Source of the DNA: Gammaproteobacteria bacterium
GTDB taxonomy: Bacteria; Pseudomonadota; Gammaproteobacteria; JBCCGL01
Direction of reading: 5' to 3'
DNA length: 64,000 bases
Assembly (NCBI GenBank): GCA_965277715.1
Contig: OZ255836.1
Coordinates: 1,184,001 to 1,248,000, forward strand
Part shown: piece after piece, positions 6,031-27,202 of the stretch
How the letters are laid out: each line of letters begins with the position of its first letter
Numbering within the stretch: the stretch's first letter is position 1
Translations under genes and position numbers: made by a program
The notes under the pieces: generated by a model
The model's database searches: none
The model's input: only the letters and a program-made list of their open reading frames with translations
Told to the model about the DNA's origin: nothing

Positions 6031-6489
6031 TCACTTTATCGACATTAGCGCGTGACGGGTATTCTCTTTACGCGCATCGATTAACAAGCGCACCCGCAAG
6101 CGACGAAAGACATGGGCGGGCAATGCATCGCGTGCGAGCACCAGGGCAATAAACCGGTTTCGCTCACTGCGTAAGTGCAACCAGATAAAATAGCGGTTTA
6201 CGATGCTACTCCCCAGCAGACGGGCCACTTCACCGGGTTTGTTATCCACCGAAACCCGCCAGTCACCCGGCGTCTCCCAGACCAGTGAGACACTTCGTCG
6301 ATACCGCTTTAGCGAGCAGGCGAAACTCAACAACAATGCCACAGTGATCGAGAGGTTGAACACCCACGGTAATGGCGACCAGGCGACGCTGCACAGCGAT
6401 AGGCAATACACACAAGCAATAATCACCATAAGATATTTCGAGGTGACCGGCGCAATGCGCAATGGGTAAGTGTGCTGTTTAAAGGCCAT
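6031..6489 (-). CDS. YgfX/CptA-like membrane protein
   Basis: Two N-terminal TM segments, C-terminal D.....FRRLRV motif, lies directly downstream of sdhE as in the sdhE-ygfX operon. Confidence 0.7.
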   Translation of the reverse strand: MAFKQHTYPLRIAPVTSKYLMVIIACVYCLSLCSVAWSPLPWVFNLSITVALLLSFACSLKRYRRSVSLVWETPGDWRVSVDNKPGEVARLLGSSIVNRYFIWLHLRSERNRFIALVLARDALPAHVFRRLRVRLLIDARKENTRHALMSIK

Positions 6490-6753: not shown

Positions 6754-7536
6754 TTATATACGCCGCTGTAACAGCAGTTTTTTTGTTTCTGCGATGGCTT
6801 TGGCCGGGTTCAGTCCTTTTGGGCACACTTTGGCACAGTTCATAATAGTGTGGCAGCGGTACAACTTAAAGGGGTCTTCAAGTTCATCCAGGCGTTCACC
6901 TGCCGCCTCATCGCGGGAGTCGACAATCCAGCGGTAGGCATTCAATAGGGCCGCCGGGCCAAGGTAGCGATCACTGTTCCACCAGTAGCTTGGGCAGCTT
7001 GTGGAACAACAGGCACATAAGATGCACTCGTACAGGCCATCGAGTTTTTCCCGGTCCTCCTTGGACTGCAAACGCTCCCTGTCTGGCGGTGTGGCAGAGG
7101 CGGTTTTCATCCACGGCTCAACCGATGCGTACTGTGCGTAGAAATTCGATAGATCAGACACCAGGTCTTTGACAATGGGCTGGTGTGGCAGTGGGTAGAC
7201 CTTAATATCCCCCTTAATATCCGCTATCGCCATCGTACAGGCCAGCGTATTGGCACCATCGATATTCATGGCGCAGGAGCCACAGATACCCTCGCGGCAG
7301 GAGCGACGCAGCGACAGCGTGGTGTCCATTTCATTTTTTATTTTTAACAGACCATCAAGCACCATCGGCCCACAATTATCCATATCGACTTCGTAGGTGT
7401 CGGTGCGCGGGTTTTCACCCGAATCCGGGTCGTAGCGATAGACGATAAATCGCCGGATATTGTCTGAACCACTCGCATCACGAAAGGTTTTACCGGGCTT
7501 TACAATCGAATTGGCGGGCAGTGAAAATTCAGCCAT
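6754..7536 (-). CDS. sdhB: Succinate dehydrogenase Fe-S subunit
   Basis: [49 protein letters not shown]; start taken at MAEFSLP. Confidence 0.96.
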
Positions 7537-7606
7537 TGTTTTTCTCCAGCATACCTTGCTTACACTAATAATAAATGGGATTAATAAACGGGATTGATAA
7601 GCAATA

Positions 7607-9409
7607 TCAATAAACGCGGGTCTTTGGCGGTATAACGTCACATTCATCCGTCAGGGTATACATATGCACGGGCCGGTAATCGAAGGTCACATCCGCATTT
7701 TGGTCAACCCAGGTCAATGTATGCTTCATCCAGTTGTTATCGTCGCGTTCGCTGAAATCTTCACGGGCATGGCCACCACGGCTCTCCTTGCGATTATCGG
7801 CACCGCGAATAATCGTCTGTGCCTGTATCAATAGATTTTCCAGTTCAAGCGTTTCGACCAGATCGGTATTCCAAACCAGGCCACGGTCAGAGACGCTGAC
7901 ATCGGCAAACGAGGAGACCACCTCGTCCATCTTGCCAATGCCCTCCTGCATCGATTCACCCGTGCGAAAAACAGCGGCGTGCTGCTGCATAGTGCGCTGC
8001 ATTTTGTCGCGAATACTGGCTGTCGATGTAGCGCCACTGGCGTTGCGCAGCTTGTCAAAATTGGCCAGTGACCGCTCGACACCCTCGGTGGTAATTGTTT
8101 TGTGCGGCGCGCCTTTTTCGACCACCTGTGCGGCGCGCATCGCGGCGGCACGGCCAAACACGACAATATCGAGCAGTGAATTTGAACCCAGGCGGTTGGC
8201 ACCGTGAACCGACACACACGCCGCCTCGCCAATCGCCATCAGGCCCGGCACAACCGTATCGGGGTCGCCATCCTGTAGTGTCACCACTTCCCCCTGGTAG
8301 TTGGTGGGAATGCCCCCCATGTTGTAATGCACGGTGGGAATCACCGGAATCGGTTGTTTGCTGACATCGACACCGGCAAAAATTTTCGCCGACTCGGAAA
8401 TACCGGGCAAACGCTCGTTAATCACTTCGCTGCCCAGGTGTTCAAGGTGTAAATGAATATGGTCTTTTTGTGGCCCCACACCGCGACCGGCGTTGATTTC
8501 CATGGTCATTGAACGGCTGACAACATCGCGTGAAGCCAGGTCTTTGGCGTTGGGTGCGTAGCGCTCCATAAAGCGCTCGCCCTCAGCGTTGGTCAGGTAT
8601 CCCCCCTCACCCCGCACCCCTTCGGTGATCAATACACCGGCACCGTAAATGCCGGTTGGGTGGAACTGTACAAACTCCATATCCTGCAATGGCAGGCCCG
8701 CACGCAATACCATGGCATTGCCATCGCCCGTACAGGTGTGCGCTGATGTGGCAGAAAAATAGGCGCGACCACACCCCCCCGTTGCCAGTACCACTGTATG
8801 GGCGCGGAACCGATGCAACGCCCCTGTGGCGAGATCCCATGCCAACACCCCCCGGCACACCCCTTCATCCATGATCAGATCGATAGCAAAGTATTCAATA
8901 AAGAACTCGGCATTATGTTTAAGCGACTGCTGGTATAGAGTGTGCAAAATCGCGTGGCCGGTACGATCCGCCGCCGCGCAGGTTCGCTGCGCAGTGCCCT
9001 CACCAAAATTGGTGGTCATACCGCCAAAGGGTCGCTGGTAGATTTTGCCGTCTTCGGTGCGCGAGAATGGCACCCCATAGTGCTCCAGCTCAATCACCGC
9101 AGGCCCCGCTTCGCGGCACATGTATTCGATAGCATCCTGGTCACCCAGCCAGTCTGAACCTTTAATCGTGTCATACATATGCCACTGCCAACTGTCCGGC
9201 CCCATATTGCCAAGCGAGGCACTCATCCCTCCCTGCGCCGCCACTGTGTGGCTGCGGGTTGGGAATACCTTGGTAATGCACGCCGTCGAAAGACCTTCCG
9301 CCGCCATCCCCAGTGCGGCGCGCAAACCCGCGCCCCCTGCCCCAACGATAACCACATCATAACTGTGGTCGACCAGCTTATATTTATCGAGCATGTTTTC
9401 CACCGACAT
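7607..9409 (-). CDS. sdhA: Succinate dehydrogenase flavoprotein subunit
   Basis: [19 protein letters not shown]-attachment motif, [19 protein letters not shown]. Confidence 0.97.
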
Positions 9410-15777: not shown

Positions 15778-16876
15778 CTATAAACCTGATTTCAAACTGG
15801 CTTCAATAAAGGGATCGAGCGCGCCATCGAGCACCGCCTGGGTATTGCCGGTCTCCACGCCGGTGCGCAAGTCTTTGATCCGTGCGGCATCGAGCACATA
15901 CGAGCGAATCTGGCTGCCCCAGCCAATATCTGACTTGCTCTCCTCCAGCGCCTGCTGATCGCCCATCTGCTTCATCTTCTCCATTTCATAAAGCCTGGAT
16001 TTGAGTTGCTTCATCGCCGTCGCTTTATTTTTGTGCTGGGACCGATCATTCTGACACTGCACCACAATACCGCTCGGGGCGTGGGTGATGCGCACCGCCG
16101 ATTCGGTGCGGTTGACGTGCTGCCCACCGGCACCACTGGCGCGGTAGACATCAATGCGCAAATCGGCGGGGTTAATGTCTATATCGATATTATCGTCGAC
16201 CTCTGGCGAGGCAAACACCGCCGCAAATGACGTGTGCCGCCGACTGCCCGAGTCAAAAGGGGATTTGCGCACCAGCCGGTGCACCCCCGTTTCAGTCCGC
16301 AGCCAACCAAAGGCATAGTCGCCGACATAGCGCACCGTGGCACTCTTAATACCCGCCACATCACCGGGGGATGCTTCGATAATCTCCGTTTTAAACCCAT
16401 GCTGCTCACCCCAGCGCAGGTACATCCGCAGCAGCATCTCCGCCCAATCCTGCGCCTCGGTGCCACCAGAGCCGGACTGAATATCCAGAAACGCATTACT
16501 GGCATCCTGCTCGCCGGAAAACATACGCTGAAACTCCAGCTCGACAACCCGCGCCTCGCACGCCGCGACATCCTCCGCCACCGAGGCCAGCGTCGCCTCA
16601 TCCTCTTCTTCACGGGCGAGTGCAATCAGCTCAAACCCATCATCCAGCCCTGTTGAAATCTCATCCAGCCCCTCGACCACCGTGGCCAACATCGCCCGTT
16701 CCCTGCCCAGCGCCTGGGCCTGCTCGGGGTTATTCCATATCGTTGGGTTTTCCAGCTCCCTCAATACCTCTTCGAGGCGCTCTTTGCGGCCAGCGTAGTC
16801 AAAGATACCCCCTAAGGGAGCCAACACGCGCCCGCAAGTCATCGATTTGATAGGTTAATGGGTTGGTTTCCAACAT
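15778..16876 (-). CDS. prfB: Peptide chain release factor 2 (programmed +1 frameshift)
   Basis: SPF and GGQ motifs. The upstream frame [25 protein letters not shown] joins through AGGGGGTATCTTTGAC. Confidence 0.96.
16798..16813 (-). promoter_or_regulatory. prfB +1 frameshift signal (internal SD AGGGGG + CTT TGA C)
   Basis: Exact match to the canonical RF2 autoregulatory site. Confidence 0.95.
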
Positions 16877-16961
16877 GCTGTGCTCTGCGCAAAAAGAGCG
16901 GTATGGTACACCATTGTGGGGTGGGTATTACACAACGCTGTTTGATAATATATTGGCATAT

Positions 16962-16997
16962 AGTAACTTTTGGTTGCATTGTTAAACCAAAAGTTAC
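16962..16997. terminator. Inverted repeat between the WD40 gene and prfB (possible terminator)
   Basis: GTAACTTTTGGTT...AACCAAAAGTTAC, 13-bp arms. Confidence 0.4.
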
Positions 16998-17085
16998 ATT
17001 TCAATATTGCCACTGTATTTCCCTTTGGTGACGCGTCTGTATAGTGAAGCTTCAGCGCCTTTGAAACGCTAACGAGCGCCCGTAA

Positions 17086-19350
17086 TTAAGCCAACCTCCT
17101 AAGCCGCAAGTACCGACCAGTCGCTTCCCACTCAACATTTTCGGGATTCGCCCAAAAGCGTCGTGCTACAAACGCTGGTTGTGCACCGCCTTCATGGTGC
17201 ATATGCAATACTTCGGCGATGGCTGGGTCGGCGGGTAAACGCACCCCATCGACCCACTCACTGCGCAGCGCTTGCCCGTCACTGCGCCCCACCGTCATCG
17301 TTTCGCTACACCACCTCTCACCCTCTCCGGCGCGCACCTGCTCTATCACCACATCCGCCTGCGCACGGTGGTAAAACACCTGGCGGCGATTCGGTTCATC
17401 GGGAAAAAATTTTCCGCCGCCCGCCCACCCGCCCCACAACACCGAGCACCCTTGATCGGCGACCACTACATGGAATACCGGGTCATTAGTCGTCTCCCAG
17501 CTTAGCTCGCACTCCCCGGCCAGCGACCACACTTTCACCATCTTATCCAAACTCCCCGATACCACTCGACCATCGCCCAAGACCGCAACACTATTCACAC
17601 TAGACTCATGCCCGCTGAGCGTTAGCTCGCACGCCCCGCTAACCAGCGACCACACTTTCACCGTCTTATCCAAACTCCCCGATACCACTTGACTATCGCC
17701 CAAGACCGCAACACTATTCACACCAGACTCATGCCCGCTGAGCGTTAGCTCGCACGCCCCGCTAACCAGCGACCACACTTTCACCGTTCCATCATCACGC
17801 CCCGATACCACTCGACCATCGTCCAAGACCGCAACACTATTCACACCAGACTCATGCCCGCTGAGCGTTAGCTCGCACGCCCCGCTGGCCAGCGACCACA
17901 CCTTCACCGTTCCATCATCACTCCCCGATACCACTCGACCATCGACCAAGACCGCAACACTATTCACACCAGACTCATGCCCGCTGAGCGTTAGCTCGCA
18001 CGCCCCGCTGGCTAGCGACCACACTTTCACCGTCTTATCAACACTCCCCGATACCACTCGACCATCGCCCAAGACCGCAACACTATTCACACTAGACTCA
18101 TGCCCGCTGAGCGTTAGCTCACACGCCCTGCTGGCCAGCGACCACACTTTCACCGTCTTATCCAAACTCCCCGATACCACTCGACCATCGCCCAAGACCG
18201 CAACACTATTCACACCAGACTCATGCCCGCTGAGCGTTAGCTCGCACGCCCCGCTGGCCAGCGACCACACTTTCACCGTCTTATCATCACTCCCCGATAC
18301 CACTCGACCATCGCCCAAGACCGCAACACTTCTCACATAATCACTGTGCTCGCTGAGCGTTAGCTCGCACGCCCCGCTGGCCAGCGACCACACTTTCACC
18401 GTCTTATCATCACTCCCCGATACCACTCGACCATCGCCCAAGACCGCAACACTCATCACACCTCCACTATGCCCGCTGAGCGTTAGCTCGCACGCCCCAC
18501 TGGCCAGCGACCACACCTTCACCGTTCCATCAAAACTCCCTGATACCACTCGACCATCGCCCAAGACCCCAACACTCATCACACCTCCACTATGCCCGCT
18601 GAGCGTTAGCTCACACACCCCGCTGGCCAGCGACCACACTTTCACCGTCTTATCAACACTCCCCGATACCACTCGACCATCGCCCAAGACCCCAACACTT
18701 CTCACCCAATCAGTATGCCCGCTGAGCGTTAGCTCGCACGCCCCGCTGGCCAGCGACCACACTTTCACCGTCTTATCCAAACTCCCCGATACCACTCGAC
18801 CATCGCCCAAGACCGCGACACTCATCACACCTCCACTATGCCCGCTGAGCGTTAGCTCGCACGCCCCGCTGGCCAGCGACCACACCTTCACCGTTCCATC
18901 AGCACTCCCCGATACCACTCGACCATCGCCCAAGACCGCAACACTATTCACACTAGACTCATGCCCGCTGAGCGTTAGCTCGCACGCCCCGCTGGCCAGC
19001 GACCACACTTTCACCGTTCCATCATCACTCCCCGATACCACTCGACCATCGCCCAAGACCGCAACACTCTTCACATAATCACTGTGCCCATGTTCGTTAG
19101 GGTGCACTACGCCAGTATCCGCCGGGGTTTGGCCGATATTGCTGTGCAGTGTATCGGCGAATCGGGGGGGTAGCGCCGCATTGAGTGTGTCCGGCAGTTG
19201 CAAGCCACGAAGGTAAACATCGTTTAGCGCACCCTTTGGCAAAGTAATGCCCTCGCCACCAATATCCTGCCACTCGATAGGGCGTGGCAGTCGATAGGGC
19301 GGATTGAGTTTGCGGCATAGCAATGCTAGAGCCTGGCCGGTGTTAGTCAT
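17086..19350 (-). CDS. WD40 protein with 13 near-identical 41-aa repeats, flanked by FGE-sulfatase-like segments
   Basis: GH...V.SVAVLGDGRVVSGS.D.TVKVW repeats. ATG at 19350 has an AGGAGG SD and overlaps the KAP stop codon. Confidence 0.92.
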   Translation of the reverse strand: MTNTGQALALLCRKLNPPYRLPRPIEWQDIGGEGITLPKGALNDVYLRGLQLPDTLNAALPPRFADTLHSNIGQTPADTGVVHPNEHGHSDYVKSVAVLGDGRVVSGSDDGTVKVWSLASGACELTLSGHESSVNSVAVLGDGRVVSGSADGTVKVWSLASGACELTLSGHSGGVMSVAVLGDGRVVSGSLDKTVKVWSLASGACELTLSGHTDWVRSVGVLGDGRVVSGSVDKTVKVWSLASGVCELTLSGHSGGVMSVGVLGDGRVVSGSFDGTVKVWSLASGACELTLSGHSGGVMSVAVLGDGRVVSGSDDKTVKVWSLASGACELTLSEHSDYVRSVAVLGDGRVVSGSDDKTVKVWSLASGACELTLSGHESGVNSVAVLGDGRVVSGSLDKTVKVWSLASRACELTLSGHESSVNSVAVLGDGRVVSGSVDKTVKVWSLASGACELTLSGHESGVNSVAVLVDGRVVSGSDDGTVKVWSLASGACELTLSGHESGVNSVAVLDDGRVVSGRDDGTVKVWSLVSGACELTLSGHESGVNSVAVLGDSQVVSGSLDKTVKVWSLVSGACELTLSGHESSVNSVAVLGDGRVVSGSLDKMVKVWSLAGECELSWETTNDPVFHVVVADQGCSVLWGGWAGGGKFFPDEPNRRQVFYHRAQADVVIEQVRAGEGERWCSETMTVGRSDGQALRSEWVDGVRLPADPAIAEVLHMHHEGGAQPAFVARRFWANPENVEWEATGRYLRLRRLA
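17500..19089 (-). repeat. Intragenic tandem array of 13 x 123-bp units
   Basis: Period of 123 bp (e.g. GTTAGCTC at 17621 and 17744); nucleotide-level near identity outside the variable cassettes. Confidence 0.95.
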
Positions 19351-21127
19351 GCGGGACCTCCTGTTTGGCAAGCTCGGCGATAACGTTCAGTTGCTTATAG
19401 AGGGTTTTAAACTGGTCAGCAGAGGTAACCTCTGCCATATGCGCCAGCCAGCTCAGGTCGGTGGCGCGGTCTTTGGCCTTATTAGCTGCCAACAGGGCTT
19501 TAAAACAGTTATCAGGTAGGCGGTTGTTGGCCAGCTTGTGCTCTTTGATAAAAGCACTGCGTGCAGCGGTGGTGGGATTGAGCAGCCCCTCCACGACCAC
19601 CAGCATGGGCACGTTTAACTTGGCGAGAGGTAGGTTACCGTCACTGGCCTCGGGGATATCAGTTTCTTGGTAGTTTGGGCTTTCGCTGATCTCGATTTCT
19701 GGTGAACGCTCTTGCAAATAAAGCTGGCGGAAAATTTCGGGGCTAACGCCGTGGTAAATATCGTAATCACTTTGTTCAGGAAGATCGGGAAAGATATCCT
19801 GCGGGTGCACGCCGTAGCGGTTGTTGATGCCCTGCCGGATCGCCGCTTGATAGCGCGGCAAAAACCGCCCACCGCGCCTGCTGGCCCCGCCGCCCTGGTT
19901 TAGCGCTGCCTTGATATCGCTGATATCCAGGGCGTTATTCTCGTCCAGTTCGGTGGATAACAGCCAGCCATACACCTTGGCTTCATTGCGCAGCAGCCGG
20001 TACAGGGCTGGGTAGAGTTGTTGCAAGATGGTGAGCCTGGCGACCAATAGTGTGCTGATATCCTGGCCGCCAAGCTGGCGCAGGCGGTCGACTTTAAGGC
20101 GCGTGCCTTCGACCGCACGGATCAGTTTGCGCGGCACGGGTGGCAGGGCATCGAGAAACAGATTTAGTAATGCCTCATCGGTTTGTTTCTCGGTTGACTG
20201 TTCGGGTTTCAGGGCCAGGTCTGTACGGTGTTTTTCATCCTGATTGGTCTGTTCGGTTAGTTTAACGTCTGTTAGAGAGAAAAAATCCTCAAACGTGTCG
20301 GTAAGGAATTTCTGTGCCGACTTCTTCGACCATAGCGGTAGATACACCGGCACATGGACGATCTTTTCCAGGTATTCGCTACCGCTGATCGGGGGCGCGA
20401 ACGCGTCCGGTTCCTCTGGCTTGCCATCATCACCCTGTGGGCGCGAGAACAGATAATCACGGTAGCGGTGGTTGATACCGCGCTCGACCACTTCTTCATC
20501 CACCGCCAGGACAAAACTAAAGTTTTTCAGGTTGAGGAACAGCTTGATGGACTCCAGCATTTCCACCGCCTTTTCCGGCAGGCAGCGATCGAGATCGTCG
20601 ATCAGTACGACAAAGCGCAGGGTCTCATCAAGCCCCAAGGTATCGAGTTGTTTGAAGGCACCGTAGTACAGTGAATCACATTGATTCGCTCGGGTATTCC
20701 GGGCTTTATCCAGCATCGACTTGCCGTTAACTTCTAACGCCGCCCCAGGTAGGCCAAACTTGAATTTGATACCGGCGGCTACGGCGATGGCGAAGTCTGC
20801 AAAGATCTTAGTCGACTTATTCAGTCCTTTCTTAATGGCTCTATAGGGAGGTTGGGTTGTTTTAACCACCTGCTCTATGGTTTTAAGCAGTGGAACTATC
20901 AGGTGTTCTTCTCTCTCATACCGCCAGGGGGAGAAAAACACCGGGATATAAAAGTAATCACCAGGCTTGGCGGATAAATCGCGAAAATAACCCTCAATAT
21001 TGCGCAGCGTGCGGGTTTTACCGACACCCCATTCGCCATACACCGACACCACCAACGCCTCACGGCTGGGCTGGTGCGGAAAGCTGGTTTCAATTAACCG
21101 GCAAATGCTGGTGTGGAAGTCTTCCAT
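19343..21127 (-). CDS. KAP-family P-loop NTPase
   Basis: Walker A GEWGVGKT, FSPWRY, Walker B VVLIDDLDRC, FVLAVD, EYLEKIVHVP, PRKLIR. Confidence 0.92.
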   Translation of the reverse strand: MEDFHTSICRLIETSFPHQPSREALVVSVYGEWGVGKTRTLRNIEGYFRDLSAKPGDYFYIPVFFSPWRYEREEHLIVPLLKTIEQVVKTTQPPYRAIKKGLNKSTKIFADFAIAVAAGIKFKFGLPGAALEVNGKSMLDKARNTRANQCDSLYYGAFKQLDTLGLDETLRFVVLIDDLDRCLPEKAVEMLESIKLFLNLKNFSFVLAVDEEVVERGINHRYRDYLFSRPQGDDGKPEEPDAFAPPISGSEYLEKIVHVPVYLPLWSKKSAQKFLTDTFEDFFSLTDVKLTEQTNQDEKHRTDLALKPEQSTEKQTDEALLNLFLDALPPVPRKLIRAVEGTRLKVDRLRQLGGQDISTLLVARLTILQQLYPALYRLLRNEAKVYGWLLSTELDENNALDISDIKAALNQGGGASRRGGRFLPRYQAAIRQGINNRYGVHPQDIFPDLPEQSDYDIYHGVSPEIFRQLYLQERSPEIEISESPNYQETDIPEASDGNLPLAKLNVPMLVVVEGLLNPTTAARSAFIKEHKLANNRLPDNCFKALLAANKAKDRATDLSWLAHMAEVTSADQFKTLYKQLNVIAELAKQEVPHD

Positions 21128-21346
21128 TAGGCTGATAATTTTTTGGGGTTAGGTGGTATCGGTTAATACATTTAACATCACTACCAATAGAGTGTATCTG
21201 AAATCTGGATATTTTCAGTGGTGGCGCTATAGAAAGCGTTTTAGAAAAGCCGTGAAATGCGCGTTTGGTACAGAAAGGGGGCGTCTTTAGCTTTGCAAAA
21301 AATCAGAATTTTGGAAAGCAGGCCTGCCTCAAAAATGCCCCTGTTA

Positions 21347-21646
21347 TTATGTGTTGAGCCACTCATGAGTGATACGTTGACGCATTTCTACAGATATGCG
21401 GTTGTACTCAACAAGCTCAAACAAAAGTTTTTCTGCAACCGTCTTATGAAGCAACTCATTTCGGTAAGCTCTTGCTATGAGCACCCCAATACCAAGAACA
21501 TCAATTCCCAAATCTAATGCTTCTTGTGCACCCTGCATTTCTTCAATAAGAAGGATTACCTTTTTCTTTCTCGCCAGAGAAAGCGCAAATCGCTCGCCTA
21601 TATCAAGGTTTCTTTGAAATTTTCCTATCTCTCGCGCTTTAAAATA
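21347..21646 (-). pseudogene. 3' remnant of a DUF3368-like PIN-domain gene
   Basis: The frame reads NLDIGERFALSLARKKKVILLIEEMQGAQEALDLGIDVLGIGVLIARAYR...RIS. An in-frame TGA lies at 21647-21649 and no N-terminal PIN half is visible. Confidence 0.6.
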
Positions 21647-21801
21647 TCACATTCTCCCTTTTACTTGTCGTTTATACTTCTAAAAACGATAATGAAAAAA
21701 AACATTGGTAAGCGTCAATTCTGTTAAAAGCTTTGAAGCTGGAAAAGGGGACGTGTGAATGCCATTTCAAAAGAAGGAGGATTCAAAGGTGCCAACGACC
21801 A

Positions 21802-22932
21802 TTAAAAAAACAACACCACTTTAAACTCTTCTCCTATCTCCTCAAACTCAACACGCCGATTCAATTTCTCCACCTCCTGACACACCATCGGCAACCCCCG
21901 ACCAAGCTTATCCACATAGCGCATATTTTCCAAAAACTTCAAGATAATGGTATTGGTAGCATAAGACACACCGTATTTAAGTTTCTCTACAGTGACAGTA
22001 TTCGGTAGTCGACCAGGGGAAATAAACTCTATTCGATCATCAAACTGCAAAATCCGAACCCTGGAACCAGAAATACTATAATTCCTATGGGTTACCGCAT
22101 TGACAATAAGTTCTCGCAGCACCTTATCTGGATAAACAGCACCCAGAGCCGTCGTTTTAGCCCCGGAAATACGACTGGGTTGTTTTATATTGTGCTTTAT
22201 CACTGTCAGGGTTTTGTCGATTTGTTCGGGAAGCGCACCGTCAATAACCTGCTTATCTATCAACTCATCACTTACCTGATTACCCTGGTAGTGCGCATAA
22301 GAGATACAGGCATTCGGTAAATACCTTTGCGGATTGATACCAAAAATCAATAGCCCAGCCACCGTCGCTTTACCATCTTGCATTACATCCATATTACTCA
22401 ATAGGTTTTCTTTGTTTTCCTCTTCTGAAAACGTTCTCTGGTAAGGTAAAAAATACTTATCTAATGAATTAAAGTTAAAATCCGAAAGTTTAGTCCTCTC
22501 GACGAGCGTTGCATCGTAATGAAATACACCAGATTGTTGAAATAAGCGCATTAGTTCTTGTATTGAAGCGACGCGATTGGTTGCACCAACCCGGATCAGA
22601 TATTGGTTATTAAGCGTCTGGTAGGGTTTATCCAATCCTTTGGGCACATCGACAATGCCAACCTGTTTGCCCTGATAAGATTCCAGGCTTACTGCGCAAA
22701 TGACGGGGGGGACAATATTATTCCGGCTGATATTGGCTACCCAATCGACAAAATCTTTATCTCTACTTAAACCACTCACCTGACCGTCGTCAGCAACACC
22801 AATTAGAACAACTCCACCGCCAGCATTCGAAAATGCCACTATTTCTTTGGCAAGGCTTTCTGCCCGTACCTCTTCAGCCTTAAACTCGATGGCTTGGTTT
22901 TCGCCTTGCTCCAGCAAATCTTTCAATGACAT
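21802..22932 (-). CDS. AlbA_2 (Schlafen-like) domain + RecG-C/HATPase_c_4-like domain protein
   Basis: GENQAIEFK...AFSNAGGGVVLIGVADDG, RELIVNAVTHRNY, DRIEFISPG. Confidence 0.85.
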   Translation of the reverse strand: MSLKDLLEQGENQAIEFKAEEVRAESLAKEIVAFSNAGGGVVLIGVADDGQVSGLSRDKDFVDWVANISRNNIVPPVICAVSLESYQGKQVGIVDVPKGLDKPYQTLNNQYLIRVGATNRVASIQELMRLFQQSGVFHYDATLVERTKLSDFNFNSLDKYFLPYQRTFSEEENKENLLSNMDVMQDGKATVAGLLIFGINPQRYLPNACISYAHYQGNQVSDELIDKQVIDGALPEQIDKTLTVIKHNIKQPSRISGAKTTALGAVYPDKVLRELIVNAVTHRNYSISGSRVRILQFDDRIEFISPGRLPNTVTVEKLKYGVSYATNTIILKFLENMRYVDKLGRGLPMVCQEVEKLNRRVEFEEIGEEFKVVLFF

Positions 22933-23196
22933 AGGTTTGGTGCTATCGAATGGAATACAAATAGAGAATAAACACCTGCCTCAACATTGTCTAGCAAGTG
23001 CCGTTATCGAAAATACTGTGACAGAGCAGGCCTAATGTCTCTCAACCTGCCCATTTTCGGTGATACACAGTATCTTGGCCCGTTACAGAAAATGTAAAAA
23101 GGGCTTAAAAAGGGATCAGTTTTGTGTCATCGGGCAGCCAGGCTACTCTAATAAACTAAATTGTTGCAATTCTATTCTGTTATAAAAAATACCCAT

Positions 23197-24324
23197 CTAT
23201 GTGTTTACTTGAATATGGGTGGAATCTAACCGGGTATCTTGCCACGGTGTAAAAACCTTCGAGACGAAGGGCGAGGTCATTGCACGAAGCAATGCGCTGT
23301 AGTTAAGTTGAAATGTCACTTCTTCGCCAACAAACAGGTCACCTTCGACAGGCTCGATGACAAGGTGGTCACTACTGGCACCCAGAATTTCAATACCCGC
23401 AGGGGCTTGCAGGCCACCGGGATCGATATCCTGTATGCCAATGGCAAGGATGGCCTGTCTCACGAGACCGCGATCCGTCGTCGATACAGCCTCGCCGAAG
23501 GCAGATTGCGCAATATGCCCTGTGGGTTGTGATGGCTTAAGCTTTGATTCAATCACCTCTGCAACCAGCGTGATAGCATTGCTGTGCAAACCATTAATCG
23601 GCTGGCGCTGTAGTGGCTCGCAGCCCAATAAAACCGCCTCGCCTAAACGTAGGTTATTAATTCGCCCTGTATCGGTTTCCGTGTTATTCAGTGCCCATTG
23701 AATATTGGCCGAATTGCCACCTGACACCGTATCCAAGGTTAAATCGAACGTCGTTTCAATACGATTCGCAAGCCCGGATAATATAGCCATATTGGTGGCA
23801 TCAGGAGACACACCACTGCGGCAAGCGAGGTTGGTGCCGATGCCTTTGAGCAAAATATTTGGCAGGCTTAACACCTCACGTACAGTATCTATCAAATCCT
23901 CAGGCAGTATGCCTTCACGCAAGTCGCCTAGCTCAACCATTAATAGCAATTGGTGAGTACGCCCTTGTTTGCGGGCTTCAACAGAAAGTTTTTTTATCAC
24001 CTCGATTTCAGTATTGCAGCTCATATCCGCATACATAACAACCTGCGCTGCCTGGCTGAGCATCGGTGAACGAATCAGTATTGTCACCGCGTCTTTTATC
24101 AGTACTTCATTGCTGGCAAGGCGCATGGCCTTTATATTTTCAATGCGCGAATCACCCAGTACCATTACCCCTGCCCGCAACAGTGCGTTCGCCATTTCCA
24201 TTGAGCCGAGAGTCGCCTTAGTTACCCCCGTGACTGAAATGCCGCGTTCAGCGAGTCGCGTAACTAATTCATGCGCATTGTGGTAAATTTTGTTGAGGTC
24301 AATTTCCAACCTGGGCGCGACCAT
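23197..24324 (-). CDS. Alanine/ornithine racemase-family PLP enzyme (Orr/YhfX-like)
   Basis: PRLEIDLNKI, GVTK (PLP Lys), MVELGDLREG, GTNLAC, SGGNS, LRLGEA, GASSDH. Confidence 0.85.
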   Translation of the reverse strand: MVAPRLEIDLNKIYHNAHELVTRLAERGISVTGVTKATLGSMEMANALLRAGVMVLGDSRIENIKAMRLASNEVLIKDAVTILIRSPMLSQAAQVVMYADMSCNTEIEVIKKLSVEARKQGRTHQLLLMVELGDLREGILPEDLIDTVREVLSLPNILLKGIGTNLACRSGVSPDATNMAILSGLANRIETTFDLTLDTVSGGNSANIQWALNNTETDTGRINNLRLGEAVLLGCEPLQRQPINGLHSNAITLVAEVIESKLKPSQPTGHIAQSAFGEAVSTTDRGLVRQAILAIGIQDIDPGGLQAPAGIEILGASSDHLVIEPVEGDLFVGEEVTFQLNYSALLRAMTSPFVSKVFTPWQDTRLDSTHIQVNT

Positions 24325-25508
24325 TAGGCCACCGTCAGGAAATTTACCTGAAGTTTTGGGAAGGCCGCAACGACCATTTCGACCAGATACTTGGGTGAAT
24401 GCGTTAAGGCATCAGTAACCGGAATACCCAGTTTTTGCTGGTACTGGATAATGGCGGTATTGACTTCAGCATCTGTCATGTTTTCATGGTTCAGGGTTAA
24501 CCCTATAACCTTGGTATCAGCAAAGGTTTCAATCAAATCAATCTCTGATTCGGGCGTAGGTATCGGCATCTGCTCAAAATCACAGCGCCACTTGCGGCTC
24601 GGTGCATGCTGCAATACCACGCCGTTAGCACAACTGCCACGGAGAATAAAAGATGAAGAGGAAAAAGCGGGATGACTCAATGCGCTCTGCCCTTCAATAA
24701 TAATCACATCCGGGCTTTCATTTTCAAACGCTTCAACAACGGTTGCTTCTAACTCTCCCACACAGAATTGTGATGGAATCGCATCTAGCGCAACACCATA
24801 ACGCGTGCCTTGAATTAACCCGGTTTGGCCCGTTCCAACCATCACTGCTTTTATACCATGCTCATTGAGTGCTCGGGTCAAGACAGTCGCTGTGGTACGT
24901 TTTCCAATCGCGCAGTCGGTACCAAGAACCGCGATACGGGGACAAGACACTTCGGCAATACGGCCACTGAATAATCGCAAATCTTTTTTGGCGCGTGGTC
25001 TGCGCACGTCGAGAATTTCTACATTACTCGATATACAGGCCGCTATAAAAACAGGGTCGTCGTTAAGAAACTCATGTAAGCCATTGACGATGTGCATACC
25101 ATGGCTCATCGCCTCAAGTATCACGCTGCGTTCGTGTATGGACAACATACCGCTGGCAGGTGCCATACCAAAGATAAAATAATCCGGCACATTACCTGCT
25201 CGCTCCAGCGCATCGGCTAGATCTCGACAAATGGGGATAGCATTGATTTTATTATCGAGCACTAAACCTGTGTCGAGACCCGCTTTTTCGCTATCGATAA
25301 CAGAAAGGATGCTGTACTTTTCCGAATGGCGCACGAGTCCATTGGCTGTTTTACCATCAATTGCAGCAAAGTTTGCTTCACAATAGACAATGGCGGTGGC
25401 CGTTGGCTGCTTGACGTGCGCAGGTTTCGATGGGAAATGCGCTATTACGTCATTCTTGACAACAGTAGGACGTTTGAGAATAGGTGAGTTTATTGGTCTT
25501 GTAGACAT
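24324..25508 (-). CDS. DUF1611 family protein (DgcN-like)
   Basis: GKTANGLVR, NGLHEFL, GTDCAIGKRTT, TGQTG, IEGQSAL.HP; TAATG overlap with the racemase gene. Confidence 0.85.
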   Translation of the reverse strand: MSTRPINSPILKRPTVVKNDVIAHFPSKPAHVKQPTATAIVYCEANFAAIDGKTANGLVRHSEKYSILSVIDSEKAGLDTGLVLDNKINAIPICRDLADALERAGNVPDYFIFGMAPASGMLSIHERSVILEAMSHGMHIVNGLHEFLNDDPVFIAACISSNVEILDVRRPRAKKDLRLFSGRIAEVSCPRIAVLGTDCAIGKRTTATVLTRALNEHGIKAVMVGTGQTGLIQGTRYGVALDAIPSQFCVGELEATVVEAFENESPDVIIIEGQSALSHPAFSSSSFILRGSCANGVVLQHAPSRKWRCDFEQMPIPTPESEIDLIETFADTKVIGLTLNHENMTDAEVNTAIIQYQQKLGIPVTDALTHSPKYLVEMVVAAFPKLQVNFLTVA

Positions 25509-25702
25509 AGTTTCCTCTTGAGTGGAAGGCTCAGAGGAGGCAACAGTATCGCGCCGACCCGAATTGGCCGAATGTCAACAAGAAGTACCGCTAAGTCATA
25601 GTGCACCGGGAAGAATATCCCGATGGGTAGACGTGATTAGGCATAGTAACACAAGCCAACGCTAACTATTGACATTCTTTGAGTGATCATCACGCTTCTT
25701 TT

Positions 25703-25727
25703 AACCTAAGTTCCGCAGTTGAATCGT
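25703..25727. repeat. 25-bp dispersed repeat, copy 2
   Basis: Exact match to 12547..12571. Confidence 0.85.
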
Positions 25728-25747
25728 CCTGACACACCACCGTAAAG

Positions 25748-27202
25748 CTATTGCCAGGGCAGCGAAAAGGTTTTGACCGTGGTGTAACTTTTCATCGCTT
25801 CAATAACCCCTTCTTTATACCCCAAACCGGAATCCTTGACGCCACCAAACGGTGACATTTCAATGCGATACCCCGGCACTTCCCAAATATTCACCGTCCC
25901 TGTGCGCAGTTCATTAATAAATCGGATGATATGATCCATACGGTTGGTGCAAACACCAGAAGACAAACCAAATGCGGTGGAGTTGGCAACGCGAATCGCA
26001 TCGTCAATATCCTTGACGCGAATGATCGGGATCGGCGGGCCAAAGGTTTCTTCAACAACCAATTCACAATCAGCCGGTACATGGTCGAGTACTGTCGGTG
26101 AGTAGACGGCACCCTGGCGGTCGTTGCCATACAGTAGCGTCGCACCCTTTGCTATCGCATCATTAACCCGCGATTCAAATAGTATGGCCGCCTGCTCATT
26201 GATCACTGTGCCCACATCGGTGTCCGGGTCCATCGGGTTGCCGTATTTTAATTTAGCCGCTTTTTTGGCGACCAGCGCGGCAAATTCATCGCCCACCGAA
26301 TCGGCACACAATATGCGCTTCACCGCTGTGCAGCGCTGGCCGGAGTTCTTTGTCGCCCCGGCAACGGCCAGTTCTGCCGCTTTGTCGAGGTCGGCATCAT
26401 CCATGACGATCAGCGGGGCGTTCCCCCCCAGCTCCAGCACGGTGCGACGATAACCCGCCGTATTGGCGATATATTTACCCACCGGAACACCCCCGGTGAA
26501 GGTAATCAGTTCAATGTTCGGGTTGGTGATCATTTCGTCGCCAATGTCTTCCGGCAGGCCGGTGACAATCGATAACATTTCCGGCGGCAGGCCCGCCGCG
26601 TAAATAATATCCGCCAGCAATAGCGCCGTGAGCGGGGTCAGCTCGGTTGGCTTGCCTACCATGCAGTTGTTGGTGGCGATCGATGGCGCTATTTTGTGTG
26701 AAATCATATTCAACGGGTGGTTGAACGGGGTAATCGCCGATAGGGCTTTCAGGGGTTCGCGCTGGGTGAAAATTTTGCGCTGTTTACCGTGGGGGGTTAG
26801 GTCACAGGAAAATACCTCACCATCATCGAGAATGCACAATTGCCCCGCCAGGCTGAATACATCGAAGGCGCGCCCCACTTCGTAGATTGAATCTTTTTTT
26901 GATAAGCCACACTCGGCGGTAATCAAATCCGAGATTTCATCCCGGCGGGCAACCAAGGCCTCAGCGGTGCGCTGTAAGATTTGCTGCCGTTCATAGCGGC
27001 TTAAGGTGGGTGTGTAGTTGGCGGCAATGTCAAATGCCCCGGCAACTTGCGCACGGCTGGCGCGGGGCACGGTGCCTACCAGGCTGTTGTCGTAGGGGTT
27101 AAAAACCTCGACGCACTTGCCGGTTTCGCCATCGACCAATTTACCGGCGATGCGCATTTTTTCGTGGCGTACGGGGGTTACAGACTCACTCGCTGCACTC
27201 AT
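25748..27202 (-). CDS. phnY: Phosphonoacetaldehyde dehydrogenase
   Basis: ALDH motifs [25 protein letters not shown]; SCDLTPHGK; follows phnA. Confidence 0.9.

Follow-up and report, generated by a model that had tools for sequence, protein, structure and literature searches.

The locus described here lies in a 64,000-nucleotide stretch of gammaproteobacterial DNA (the window) and consists of a gene for a P-loop NTPase followed by a gene for a WD40-repeat protein that contains a long array of near-identical units. Its features are:

19343..21127, minus strand: KAP-family P-loop NTPase gene, 594 amino acids, first of the pair (PF07693, E = 6.2e-35)
19355..19462, minus strand: NTPase residues 556-591, C-terminal helices on which the WD40 protein docks in a complex prediction
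19343..19362, minus strand: gene junction, with AGGAGG at 19362-19357, the WD40 ATG at 19350-19348 and the NTPase stop at 19345-19343 (8-nt overlap)
17086..19350, minus strand: WD40-repeat protein gene, 754 amino acids from the ATG (the ORF lister starts it at a TTG at 19371)
19228..19350, minus strand: residues 1-41 of the WD40 protein, its predicted docking segment at the N-terminus, with the conserved motif ALELLxRKxNPPHxPPR
17491..19089, minus strand: array of WD40 units, unit k starting at 19089-123(k-1); unit 13 has a single-codon deletion following codon 32
19069..19083, minus strand: cassette A of unit 1 (codons 3-7, of which 3, 4, 5 and 7 are variable), repeated downstream at 123-nt intervals in each of the 13 units
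19018..19026, minus strand: cassette B of unit 1 (codons 22-24, with 22 and 24 variable around an invariant Asp), likewise repeated every 123 nt in all 13 units
17086..17490, minus strand: C-terminal region of the WD40 protein, about 135 amino acids, of no known family, with an ADP...W.EW motif common to relatives in alignments

The gene pair and its predicted contact

The first protein has the P-loop domain of the KAP family, with an intact Walker A (GEWGVGKT, residues 31-38) and Walker B (residues 172-180), both invariant in an alignment of 30 relatives. The family was reportedly first described with transmembrane helices inserted in this domain; the NTPase has one hydrophobic stretch (residues 108-126), whose Kyte-Doolittle mean of 1.56 is slightly below the usual 1.6. 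Its similarity to AAA_16 (E = 0.0087) falls short of the cutoff, and it is not a STAND/NOD domain. It shares the KAP domain with QatA of the Qat system and PifA of the F plasmid (PADLOC models, E = 2.4e-22 and 4.4e-22, respectively) and also matches PDC-S20, the likeness to PifA and QatA being limited to the NTPase domain. No WD40 partner is known for the PifA or QatA families. A Qat anti-phage system was considered and rejected, as the QatA match scores 95.1 bits for a cutoff of 600 and the neighbours (prfB, lysS and an AlbA_2 protein) are not Qat partners; with so low a score, no named defence system is matched. The flanking genes prfB and lysS are housekeeping genes. A single neighbour, the Schlafen/AlbA_2 protein, hints at a defence island.

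The WD40 gene is translationally coupled to the NTPase gene. A start/stop overlap of 4 or 8 nt is present in all six related loci examined. A scan of positions 16700-21900 yielded three promoter-like and two terminator-like sites, no more than the 3.8 and 4.5 expected, and carries no information. The two proteins are also predicted to touch: the complex of the NTPase with the WD40 N-terminus has a median score of 0.67, versus 0.00 for the best of three controls. Of 157 solved complexes 116 attained that mark, as did 2 of 215 pairs that were mismatched; these counts apply roughly, as the prediction used our own alignments. Contact agreement between runs is at least 44% and partner pLDDT at least 54. 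On the WD40 side the predicted interface comprises residues 2-15 and 25-41, and L8, L10, L11, N16 and P17 are invariant in seven relatives; on the other side, W560, L561, Q572 and Y577 of the NTPase are invariant or nearly so among relatives.

Searches with the whole WD40 protein returned generic WD40 proteins of at most 56% identity, mostly fused to NACHT, NB-ARC or AAA_16 among the matches listed. The C-terminal region has no Pfam match, and residues 612-754 had none in a word-indexed search; a single weak match (E = 2.1e-5) was obtained among 1.84 billion representatives, and the Atlas feature search gave only WD40-like leads below threshold (0.88). Its structure model is confident for the last 70 residues or so only. 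No effector domain was found in the NTPase or the WD40 protein with Pfam, the large representative search or the Atlas feature search.

Variation and recombination within the array

A first-pass annotation, made from the sequence alone, had described tandem WD40 repeats in which two hypervariable cassettes are combinatorially shuffled. The array is indeed where it had been placed: 13 tandem units of 123 nt are counted in the GH register at 17491-19089, TRF reports a 123-nt period in 12.8 copies (17502-19075, 91% matches), and a DNA profile of the unit has 13 matches across the whole window, every one within the array. Thirteen stretches of the protein match PF00400 (E = 6.1e-119). Units 1-12 are 0.896 identical in nucleotides, and the 13 units average 0.84 in pairwise amino-acid identity, above the mark of at least 0.7 for Highly-Repetitive WD40 proteins, a class for which Hu 2017 itself uses a rule of eight contiguous repeats. 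In the SPADE paper (PMC6344855), WD40 repeats figure only as a benchmark. The cassette alleles had also been read correctly in all 13 units: cassette A is SDYV(K/R) in two, ESSVN in three, SGGVM in three, TDWVR in one and ESGVN in four, while cassette B is DDG in three, ADG in one, LDK in four, VDK in two, FDG in one and DDK in two. All the mixed combinations quoted there are found (SGGVM with LDK, FDG and DDK; ESSVN with ADG, VDK and LDK; ESGVN with LDK and DDG).

Variation is concentrated in the cassettes, as had been claimed. In units 1-12, taken from the exact 13-unit register, 34 of 123 nucleotides are polymorphic, which breaks down into 17 of 18 in codons 3, 4, 5, 7, 22 and 24 versus 17 of the remaining 105 (Fisher p = 1.2e-10). 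The six codons have a nucleotide diversity of 0.491, the rest of the unit one of 0.037. The further statement that the scaffold is nearly invariant even at synonymous sites holds as an approximation rather than strictly, with a scaffold pS of 0.071 and a third-position diversity of 0.057. At the six codons dN is 0.886, about 12-fold the scaffold dS of 0.075, and Nei-Gojobori dN/dS is 1.76 there and 0.34 in the scaffold, all of these being pairwise, non-phylogenetic counts over 12 short recombining units. Each amino-acid allele at the six codons is encoded by one codon only, so the cassette alleles are copies of each other and not convergent mutations, and since two alleles can be as much as 3 nt apart in a single codon, parallel mutation is implausible.

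Reassortment of the two cassettes is visible at the level of codons and of nucleotides. Tree-incompatible codon pairs are confined to the comparison between cassettes (7 of 8 A-by-B pairs, versus 0 of 6 within A and 0 of 1 within B, i.e. 0 of 7 within cassettes), which supports the description of two shuffled cassettes. The four-gamete test is failed by 103 of 210 informative nucleotide site pairs, the Hudson-Kaplan Rmin is 5, and the PHI permutation test gives p = 0.0006, 0.0022 and 0.030 for three window sizes (PHI p values range over 0.0002-0.03 in all), so the intra-array recombination that had been proposed is supported. The 13 units carry 11 distinct A-by-B combinations, as in random association (shuffles).

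These results bear on two rival readings. In the first, a single blade was recently amplified and its exposed loops changed neutrally under relaxed constraint, with neither selection for diversity nor recombination. Pereira and Lupas 2022 and Hu 2017, in the available text, interpret WD40 propellers of this highly repetitive bacterial type as products of recent amplification, and in one related array (L010) 13 of 14 units are scaffold-identical. However, neutral sites cannot outpace synonymous sites as the six codons do, the four-gamete, PHI and codon-compatibility results require recombination, and identical multi-nucleotide alleles reappear in different backgrounds; we regard this reading as improbable. 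In the second, the protein is a scaffold or regulator with one constant cellular partner, each blade fits another patch of it, the differences between blades are old and stable, and every strain has the same array. WD40 propellers do commonly use differing top-face residues per blade for one partner, according to the excerpted part of Wu 2012; the flanks are housekeeping genes, neither protein has a detected effector domain, and strain variants of the WD40 protein are absent among the matches listed (the best is 56% identical). Fixed blades are nevertheless unlikely: the scaffold was homogenised very recently, yet differences reach 3 nt in the variable codons, and the same alleles occur in several blades in random combinations, which is unexpected under one role per blade. 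Furthermore, unit number and alleles vary among related arrays, and relatives of the NTPase bear other sensor types, one of them diversified by a retroelement (see below).

A repeat array may also be wrong in unit order, number or make-up when assembled from short reads, so that some apparent recombinants would be chimeras. In the part of PMC12222747 available to us, Illumina assemblies of comparable fungal arrays drop or create repeats that long reads recover. The protein collection lacks the exact WD40 protein, with no near-identical variant among the matches listed, although it does contain the neighbour proteins, and a 93%-identical NTPase from another data set lies on a contig of 3208 nt, as if assemblies broke at the array. 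Against this, a source contig as long as 4,294,796 nt points to an assembly that is finished and probably based on long reads, the 754 codons form one unbroken reading frame, the two cassettes of a unit span no more than 66 nt and so fit into a single short read, and the same positions vary in four independently assembled related arrays. An assembly artefact is, in our judgement, a poor explanation and hardly probable.

The first-pass annotation had also assigned the variable residues to the ligand-binding top face of the propeller and likened them to the positively selected sites of het-e, and both assignments are supported. Each unit forms four strands in both structure models, with codons 3-4 in the d-a loop, codons 5 and 7 at the start of strand a and codons 22 and 24 in the b-c turn; codons 5, 7 and 22 correspond to the top-face hotspots R1-2, R1 and D-1 as given in the accessible portion of Wu 2012. 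Codons 5, 7, 22 and 24 surround a conserved V and a conserved D exactly as the selected het-e codons 7, 9, 25 and 27 surround codons 8 and 26, to go by the extract of Paoletti 2007. Six units superpose on 7-bladed propellers (TM 0.85, rmsd 1.2-1.3 Å), and the solved chain closest to the WD40 protein is 2ymu_A (E = 1.3e-113; Foldseek E = 1.1e-32). The model of the full-length protein is modestly confident (pLDDT 64.4). It places four weak strands past unit 13, a candidate 14th blade that was rejected: in the better model, which covers units 8-13 and the tail, residues 246-309 are unstructured. The blades may close as two propellers, 7+6 or, with a cryptic blade, 7+7.

Related loci and known systems

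A WD40-type propeller lies directly downstream of the NTPase, or in the same ORF, in 11 of the best 30 related loci; one fused KAP-WD40 protein (P0108) occurs among the matches listed, and the closest NTPase match is 36% identical among the best 80 loci listed on genome contigs. Entropy peaks fall at shared unit positions in five of six arrays, in approximate profiles based on a regular-expression segmentation that merged some units (11 segments for the 13 units of the window array). In five of five related arrays pN at the variable codons exceeds scaffold pS, and unit number and alleles differ from array to array. The concerted evolution that had been proposed is apparent from the units of the present array, 84% identical to each other versus 36-48% to units of related arrays; over this array and related ones together, identity is 0.60-0.96 within and 0.31-0.57 between arrays.

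In six other relatives of the NTPase an FGE-sulfatase domain takes the place of the WD40 propeller. At one of these loci (L015) a reverse transcriptase and a template repeat of 114 nt, with mismatches at template adenines exclusively, come after the FGE domain, which makes the protein a retroelement target; this confirms the inclusion of KAP NTPases among such targets in the consulted section of Dore 2024. A second locus (L016) also has a reverse transcriptase after its FGE gene; a search for a template repeat gave none there, and the candidate was rejected. The L015 relative makes it conceivable that a dedicated writer, such as a diversity-generating retroelement, also alters the six codons here. 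Unlike L015, however, the window has no RVT domain in the 48 ORFs scanned and no unit copy outside the array that could serve as template, and the alleles of the array are few and discrete, their changes involving all four bases and showing no adenine-specific scatter; targeted mutagenesis is thus very improbable. KAP NTPases whose C-terminal FGE/C-type-lectin domain is diversified by retroelements belong to the same clade, at 28-41% identity over the best matched segment, and in them, as in the present pair, a variable sensor-like module follows the NTPase. They differ in having another sensor fold, fused to the NTPase and diversified by reverse transcription and adenine mutagenesis, whereas here the sensor is a separate gene diversified by repeat recombination.

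The pattern of variable codons and reshuffled units is already known from fungal immune receptors; here it is found in the partner of a KAP-family ATPase. With the HET-E/HET-D/NWD (HNWD) NLRs of Podospora anserina, as presented in the passages available, the array shares tandem WD40 units, high internal conservation, concerted evolution (within/between identity and recombination tests) and strong diversifying selection at two codon pairs, each around a conserved residue, with hypervariable top-face codons beside the conserved V and D and dN above dS. In HNWD proteins repeat reshuffling yields new specificities, and units are reshuffled here too. There are also differences: HNWD units are of 42 amino acids and sit in one protein with a NACHT domain and a HET effector, whereas here there is no NACHT/NB-ARC (STAND) fusion, no N-terminal effector domain was detected, and the WD40 protein is without an NTPase domain, the NTPase being KAP-family and a separate polypeptide. 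HNWD genes also exchange units between paralogues and RIP adds mutations, while here no unit copy exists elsewhere in the window. The closest solved structure is WRAP/Npun_R6612 of Nostoc punctiforme (PDB 2YMU), another bacterial protein whose WD40 blades are near-identical; it is connected with a signalling ATPase that binds nucleotides, and a role in innate immunity has been proposed for it (Pereira and Lupas 2022, available text). WRAP is a STAND ATPase fusion with 14 almost invariant blades, in contrast with the six variable codons per blade, the recombination signal and the KAP NTPase partner found here. In Highly-Repetitive prokaryotic WD40 proteins, the diverse sites are the hotspot sites (Hu 2017, in part).

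The array as a candidate recognition surface

Taken together, we favour a reading, to which we give a probability of about 0.6, in which the array is the ligand-recognition surface of a detachable WD40 sensor of the KAP NTPase, shuffled by recombination and likely directed against foreign elements. The units would form a multi-blade beta-propeller, and the WD40 protein would be a subunit that joins the NTPase encoded in the same translationally coupled two-gene operon. Repeated unequal crossing-over or gene conversion inside the array would keep the 123-nt units near-identical, while diversifying selection, presumably for binding diversity, would hold the six top-face codons of each unit different. 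Crossovers between the two codon groups would reassort cassettes A and B and give the blades different pairs, so that new top-face surfaces would emerge without new mutations. Ligand binding at the top face would then switch the NTPase, and the two proteins would signal together a downstream response, most likely against phage or foreign elements; the switching and the immune response are suggested by the example of NLR/STAND receptors and of anti-phage proteins in the KAP family. On this analogy, the WD40/KAP pair is most likely an NLR-like non-self sensor.

It is possible, as a more tentative proposal, that the pair represents an undescribed family of bacterial NLR-like receptors, in which a sensor docked through its N-terminal helix can be detached and is diversified by cassette recombination, while sister NTPases use a retroelement acting on an FGE/lectin domain. 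There would then be one chassis with two anticipatory mechanisms, and the pair would be a bacterial counterpart of het-e.

If the array were stable and its partner a housekeeping protein, it would be just another young WD40 propeller. Repeat sensors with high internal conservation are thought to be a general route by which NLR-type receptors gain specificities fast, and their genetics have so far been worked out only in Podospora. The present array is bacterial and compact (two genes, 13 units), has a clean recombination signal and would be easy to manipulate. On the reading that we favour, it would carry the pairing of a sensor with an NTPase, known from STAND proteins, over to the KAP family, and would place recombination-based next to retroelement-based diversification within one NTPase clade.

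The NTPase-WD40 operon and its surroundings

The window looks like ordinary gammaproteobacterial chromosome, with genes that include lysS, prfB, parC, efp and purF. The repeat array lies in a WD40 gene that follows a KAP-family NTPase gene with intact Walker A and Walker B motifs, and the features concerned are the following.

17086-19371, minus strand: ORF of the WD40 protein, from the ORF listing
19343-21127, minus strand: KAP-family P-loop NTPase gene (PF07693, E = 6.2e-35), upstream of the WD40 gene
17502-19075: 123-nt tandem repeat, 12.8 copies (TRF)
19089 down to 17491, minus strand: 13 WD40 units in the GH register, unit 13 with a one-codon deletion

A unit profile scanned over the window gave 13 matches, every one inside the array. 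The WD40 gene is likely to start at the ATG at 19350, which is preceded by AGGAGG (19362-19357) and gives an 8-nt overlap with the stop codon of the NTPase gene. The exact WD40 protein (17086-19350) has no entry in a collection of 15 billion proteins and no self-match in the homologue search. That collection does contain the four further window proteins looked up, the NTPase among them, and the source annotation may leave out the WD40 gene or define it otherwise.

Next to the operon, immediately upstream, is a gene for a Schlafen/AlbA_2 and HATPase_c_4 protein (21802-22932, minus), which has weak PADLOC matches to Argonaute-associated proteins. G+C falls from 0.57 to 0.45-0.48 over 20000-26000, so the stretch beside prfB-lysS may have been acquired as a small island. 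As listed, the prfB ORF (15778-16842, minus) begins within the gene, with the PCRF domain from residue 20, which would fit the programmed +1 frameshift that release factor 2 genes usually carry. The CptA membrane-toxin family (PF07254) is represented by an ORF at 6031-6489 (minus), just downstream of genes for succinate dehydrogenase/fumarate reductase-type flavoprotein and iron-sulfur subunits (6754-9409).

Variation and exchange among the 13 units

The first-pass annotation described two hypervariable cassettes per unit, combined freely on a nearly invariant scaffold, and its allele counts and cassette combinations were all right on recount in the 13 units. Cassette A comprises unit codons 3, 4, 5 and 7, cassette B codons 22 and 24, and the scaffold the other 35. 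In units 1-12, 34 of 123 nucleotides are polymorphic, and their concentration in the two cassettes was borne out, as 17 of 18 nucleotides vary in the six codons against 17 of 105 elsewhere (Fisher p = 1.2e-10). Nucleotide diversity is 0.491 in the six codons versus 0.037 in the rest. By the Nei-Gojobori method the six codons have dN 0.886 and dS 0.504, the remaining 35 dN 0.025 and dS 0.075; replacement sites in the cassettes have therefore diverged about 12 times as much as synonymous sites in the scaffold. It is against this excess that neutral divergence after recent amplification has to be weighed. Each amino acid is written with one single codon at each variable position, and alleles lie up to three nucleotides apart (GGA versus AAG, for example). 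Assembly error, a further rival, would mean that the order, number or make-up of the units is wrong; short-read assemblies of comparable arrays are described as unreliable (PMC12222747), and the 4.29-Mb source contig suggests a long-read assembly.

Recombination was assessed on the 13 units (nt 1-96). The four-gamete test fails for 103 of the 210 informative site pairs, and Rmin after Hudson and Kaplan is 5. Set against 5000 site permutations, a statistic of the PHI type lay below the permuted values (neighbourhood of 3 sites, p = 0.0006; 5 sites, p = 0.0022; 8 sites, p = 0.030); for 12 units over nt 1-123, 111 of 231 pairs fail and p = 0.0004, 0.0002 and 0.0126. When the six variable codons were also treated as multistate characters, all pairs inside cassette A (6/6) and the one pair inside cassette B (1/1) were compatible with a tree, whereas 7 of the 8 A-by-B pairs were incompatible. 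The claim of two cassettes predicts this contrast (7/8 between versus 0/7 within), with each cassette a linked block and exchange within the 43 nt between cassettes or between units. Eleven distinct A-by-B combinations occur in 13 units; random re-pairing (10,000 shuffles) gave at least 11 in 84% and at most 11 in 52%, and the cassettes are therefore in effective linkage equilibrium. Fixed specialisation of the individual blades, the rival in which each unit keeps its own role, is to be read beside this re-pairing. Neighbouring units are slightly more similar than non-adjacent ones (10.8 versus 13.1 differences).

Variable residues on the propeller and in related arrays

The variable residues had been placed on the top face of the propeller, at positions selected in het-e repeats. 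Our mapping relies on the strands and loops in two AlphaFold models, one of the whole WD40 protein (pLDDT 64.4, pTM 0.45) and one of the tail together with units 8-13 (pLDDT 75.8, units mostly above 90), and on published positional rules. Both models show four strands per unit, with codons 3-4 before strand a, codons 5 and 7 at its opening, and codons 22 and 24 on either side of the Asp in the tight b-c turn. According to the accessible text of Wu et al. [quoted passage not shown] In het-d/het-e, the portion available of Paoletti et al. 2007 (PMC1805685) gives four strongly selected codons, 7, 9, 25 and 27, paired around purified codons 8 and 26, which correspond to codons 5, 7, 22 and 24 of the window, around V6 and D23. 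The models and both correspondences thus favour the top-face placement. The closest solved chain is a highly repetitive Nostoc propeller (2ymu_A; E = 1.3e-113, Foldseek E = 1.1e-32), and a structural alignment fits six units to 7-bladed designer propellers with TM 0.85 and rmsd 1.2-1.3 A. Behind unit 13, where a cryptic 14th blade may lie, the whole-protein model has four weak strands, and the model of units 8-13 leaves its residues 246-309 unstructured.

The same pattern is seen in arrays at related loci found with the window's NTPase (L numbers). By approximate segmentation, entropy peaks fall at unit positions 3, 4, 5, 7, 22/23 and 24/25 in the window, L001, L003, L004 and L005, and the L010 array is nearly invariant. 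On average, units of one array share 0.60-0.96 identity and units of different arrays 0.31-0.57; every genome therefore homogenises its own array, in agreement with the concerted evolution proposed earlier. In 5/5 related arrays pN is higher at the variable codons than pS in the scaffold, with ratios of 1.8 in L001 (8/13 units used), 1.2 in L003 (13/14), 1.8 in L004 (12/14) and 2.3 in L005 (6/8), and scaffold differences of zero in L010 (13/14). The uncorrected ratio in the window is 7.3; among the arrays that vary, the window's is the one whose scaffold was homogenised last. The L010 array (L010:10031-12499; 14 units of 45 aa) has 13 units without any scaffold difference in DNA, with variation only at the hypervariable codons, and is either extremely young or a collapsed assembly.

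The NTPase clade and the proposed receptor

Among 8000 scored candidates, 1116 are relatives of the NTPase at E <= 0.001, the closest of them with 43% identity; FGE-sulfatase fusions are many among them, DUF1566 fusions some, and WD40 occurs in one (P0108). P0242, a 93%-identical NTPase from another data set, indicates that a close relative of the operon exists; its contig, 3208 nt, is short enough for a break at the repeat array. A contig scan with one genome per species gave 562 confirmed relatives among 592 matched stretches. In the best 80 loci, the window-unit profile found WD40 ORFs in 9. The best 30 were inspected and 18 chosen ORFs scanned with Pfam; L026, L028 and the short-contig loci L014, L017, L020, L023 and L030 were left out of that scan.

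Downstream or fused domains at the inspected loci
WD40-type propeller, directly downstream or in the same stop-to-stop ORF (11/30): L001, L002, L003, L004, L005, L008, L009, L010, L012, L021, L022
FGE-sulfatase, fused: L011, L013, L015, L025, L027; downstream: L016
Downstream ORF without family: L006, L018, L019
Downstream ORF of the SdiA-regulated family (PF06977): L024
KAP domain only: L007, L029

At all six loci with a located start (L001, L003, L004, L005, L010, L012), the WD40 start overlaps the NTPase stop, by either 4 or 8 nt. Two motifs are common to the WD40 partners, one N-terminal (ALELLxRKxNPPHxPPR followed by LxGxYLRGLDL) and one C-terminal (ADP...W.EW). Short pentapeptide-repeat-like runs (LRGxxLRGxDL) lie between their docking helix and blade 1 (window 19069-19350) and reach their greatest length in L003 and L005. 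At L001:11791-12825 (Gynuella bin), the related locus nearest to the window, the C terminus of the WD40 partner carries in addition an N-acetylmuramidase domain (PF11860, E = 3.4e-26), which is absent from the window's protein and may be an effector that degrades the cell wall.

When the NTPase was modelled together with WD40 residues 1-130, the median score of the complex was 0.67, against 0.00 for the best of 3 controls; this mark is reached by 116/157 solved complexes and 2/215 mismatches, counts that hold roughly since custom alignments were used. With contact agreement between runs of at least 44% and partner pLDDT of at least 54, the predicted interface joins NTPase 556-591 to WD40 2-15 and 25-41, and the model supports binding of the two proteins.

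Targeted mutagenesis, a rival that is very unlikely for the window's array, has a parallel in the same clade. In a Sulfurovum bin (L015:7755-12020), a gene for a KAP-FGE-sulfatase fusion precedes a reverse transcriptase (RVT_1, E = 3.7e-22), behind which comes a 114-nt repeat of the fusion gene's 3' end; the mismatches all fall at adenines of the copy behind the reverse transcriptase, the signature of a diversity-generating retroelement, here a complete one on a relative of the window's NTPase. Dore et al. 2024 (PMC10907252) list KAP NTPases among the targets of such elements, and the sensor types that recent surveys give for STAND receptors of bacteria include WD40 propellers and FGE domains (PMC12803255).

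A defence role of the pair is suggested by analogy. In PADLOC the NTPase domain has matches to the QatA, PifA and PDC-S20 models, and a Schlafen/AlbA_2 neighbour lies within the lower-G+C stretch; the QatA match reaches 95 bits against a cutoff of 600, short of membership. Domain, homologue and feature searches found no effector domain in either protein. Diversified repeat arrays are established in fungi (PMC1805685, PMC12222747), Hu 2017 catalogued bacterial WD40 proteins that are highly repetitive and diverse at their hotspot sites (PMC5587647), and Dunin-Horkawicz 2014 proposed their link to signalling ATPases and immunity (cited in PMC9218822). The literature searched contains no KAP-NTPase/WD40 pair and no recombination test on a bacterial array, which is weak evidence because most subscription journals lay outside it; the single paper in it with both 'KAP NTPase' and 'WD40' treats them separately. 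The window pair is best read as a receptor of NLR-like type, with a KAP NTPase as its base and a docking WD40 sensor from a gene of its own, whose top face would be diversified by intra-array recombination under diversifying selection.
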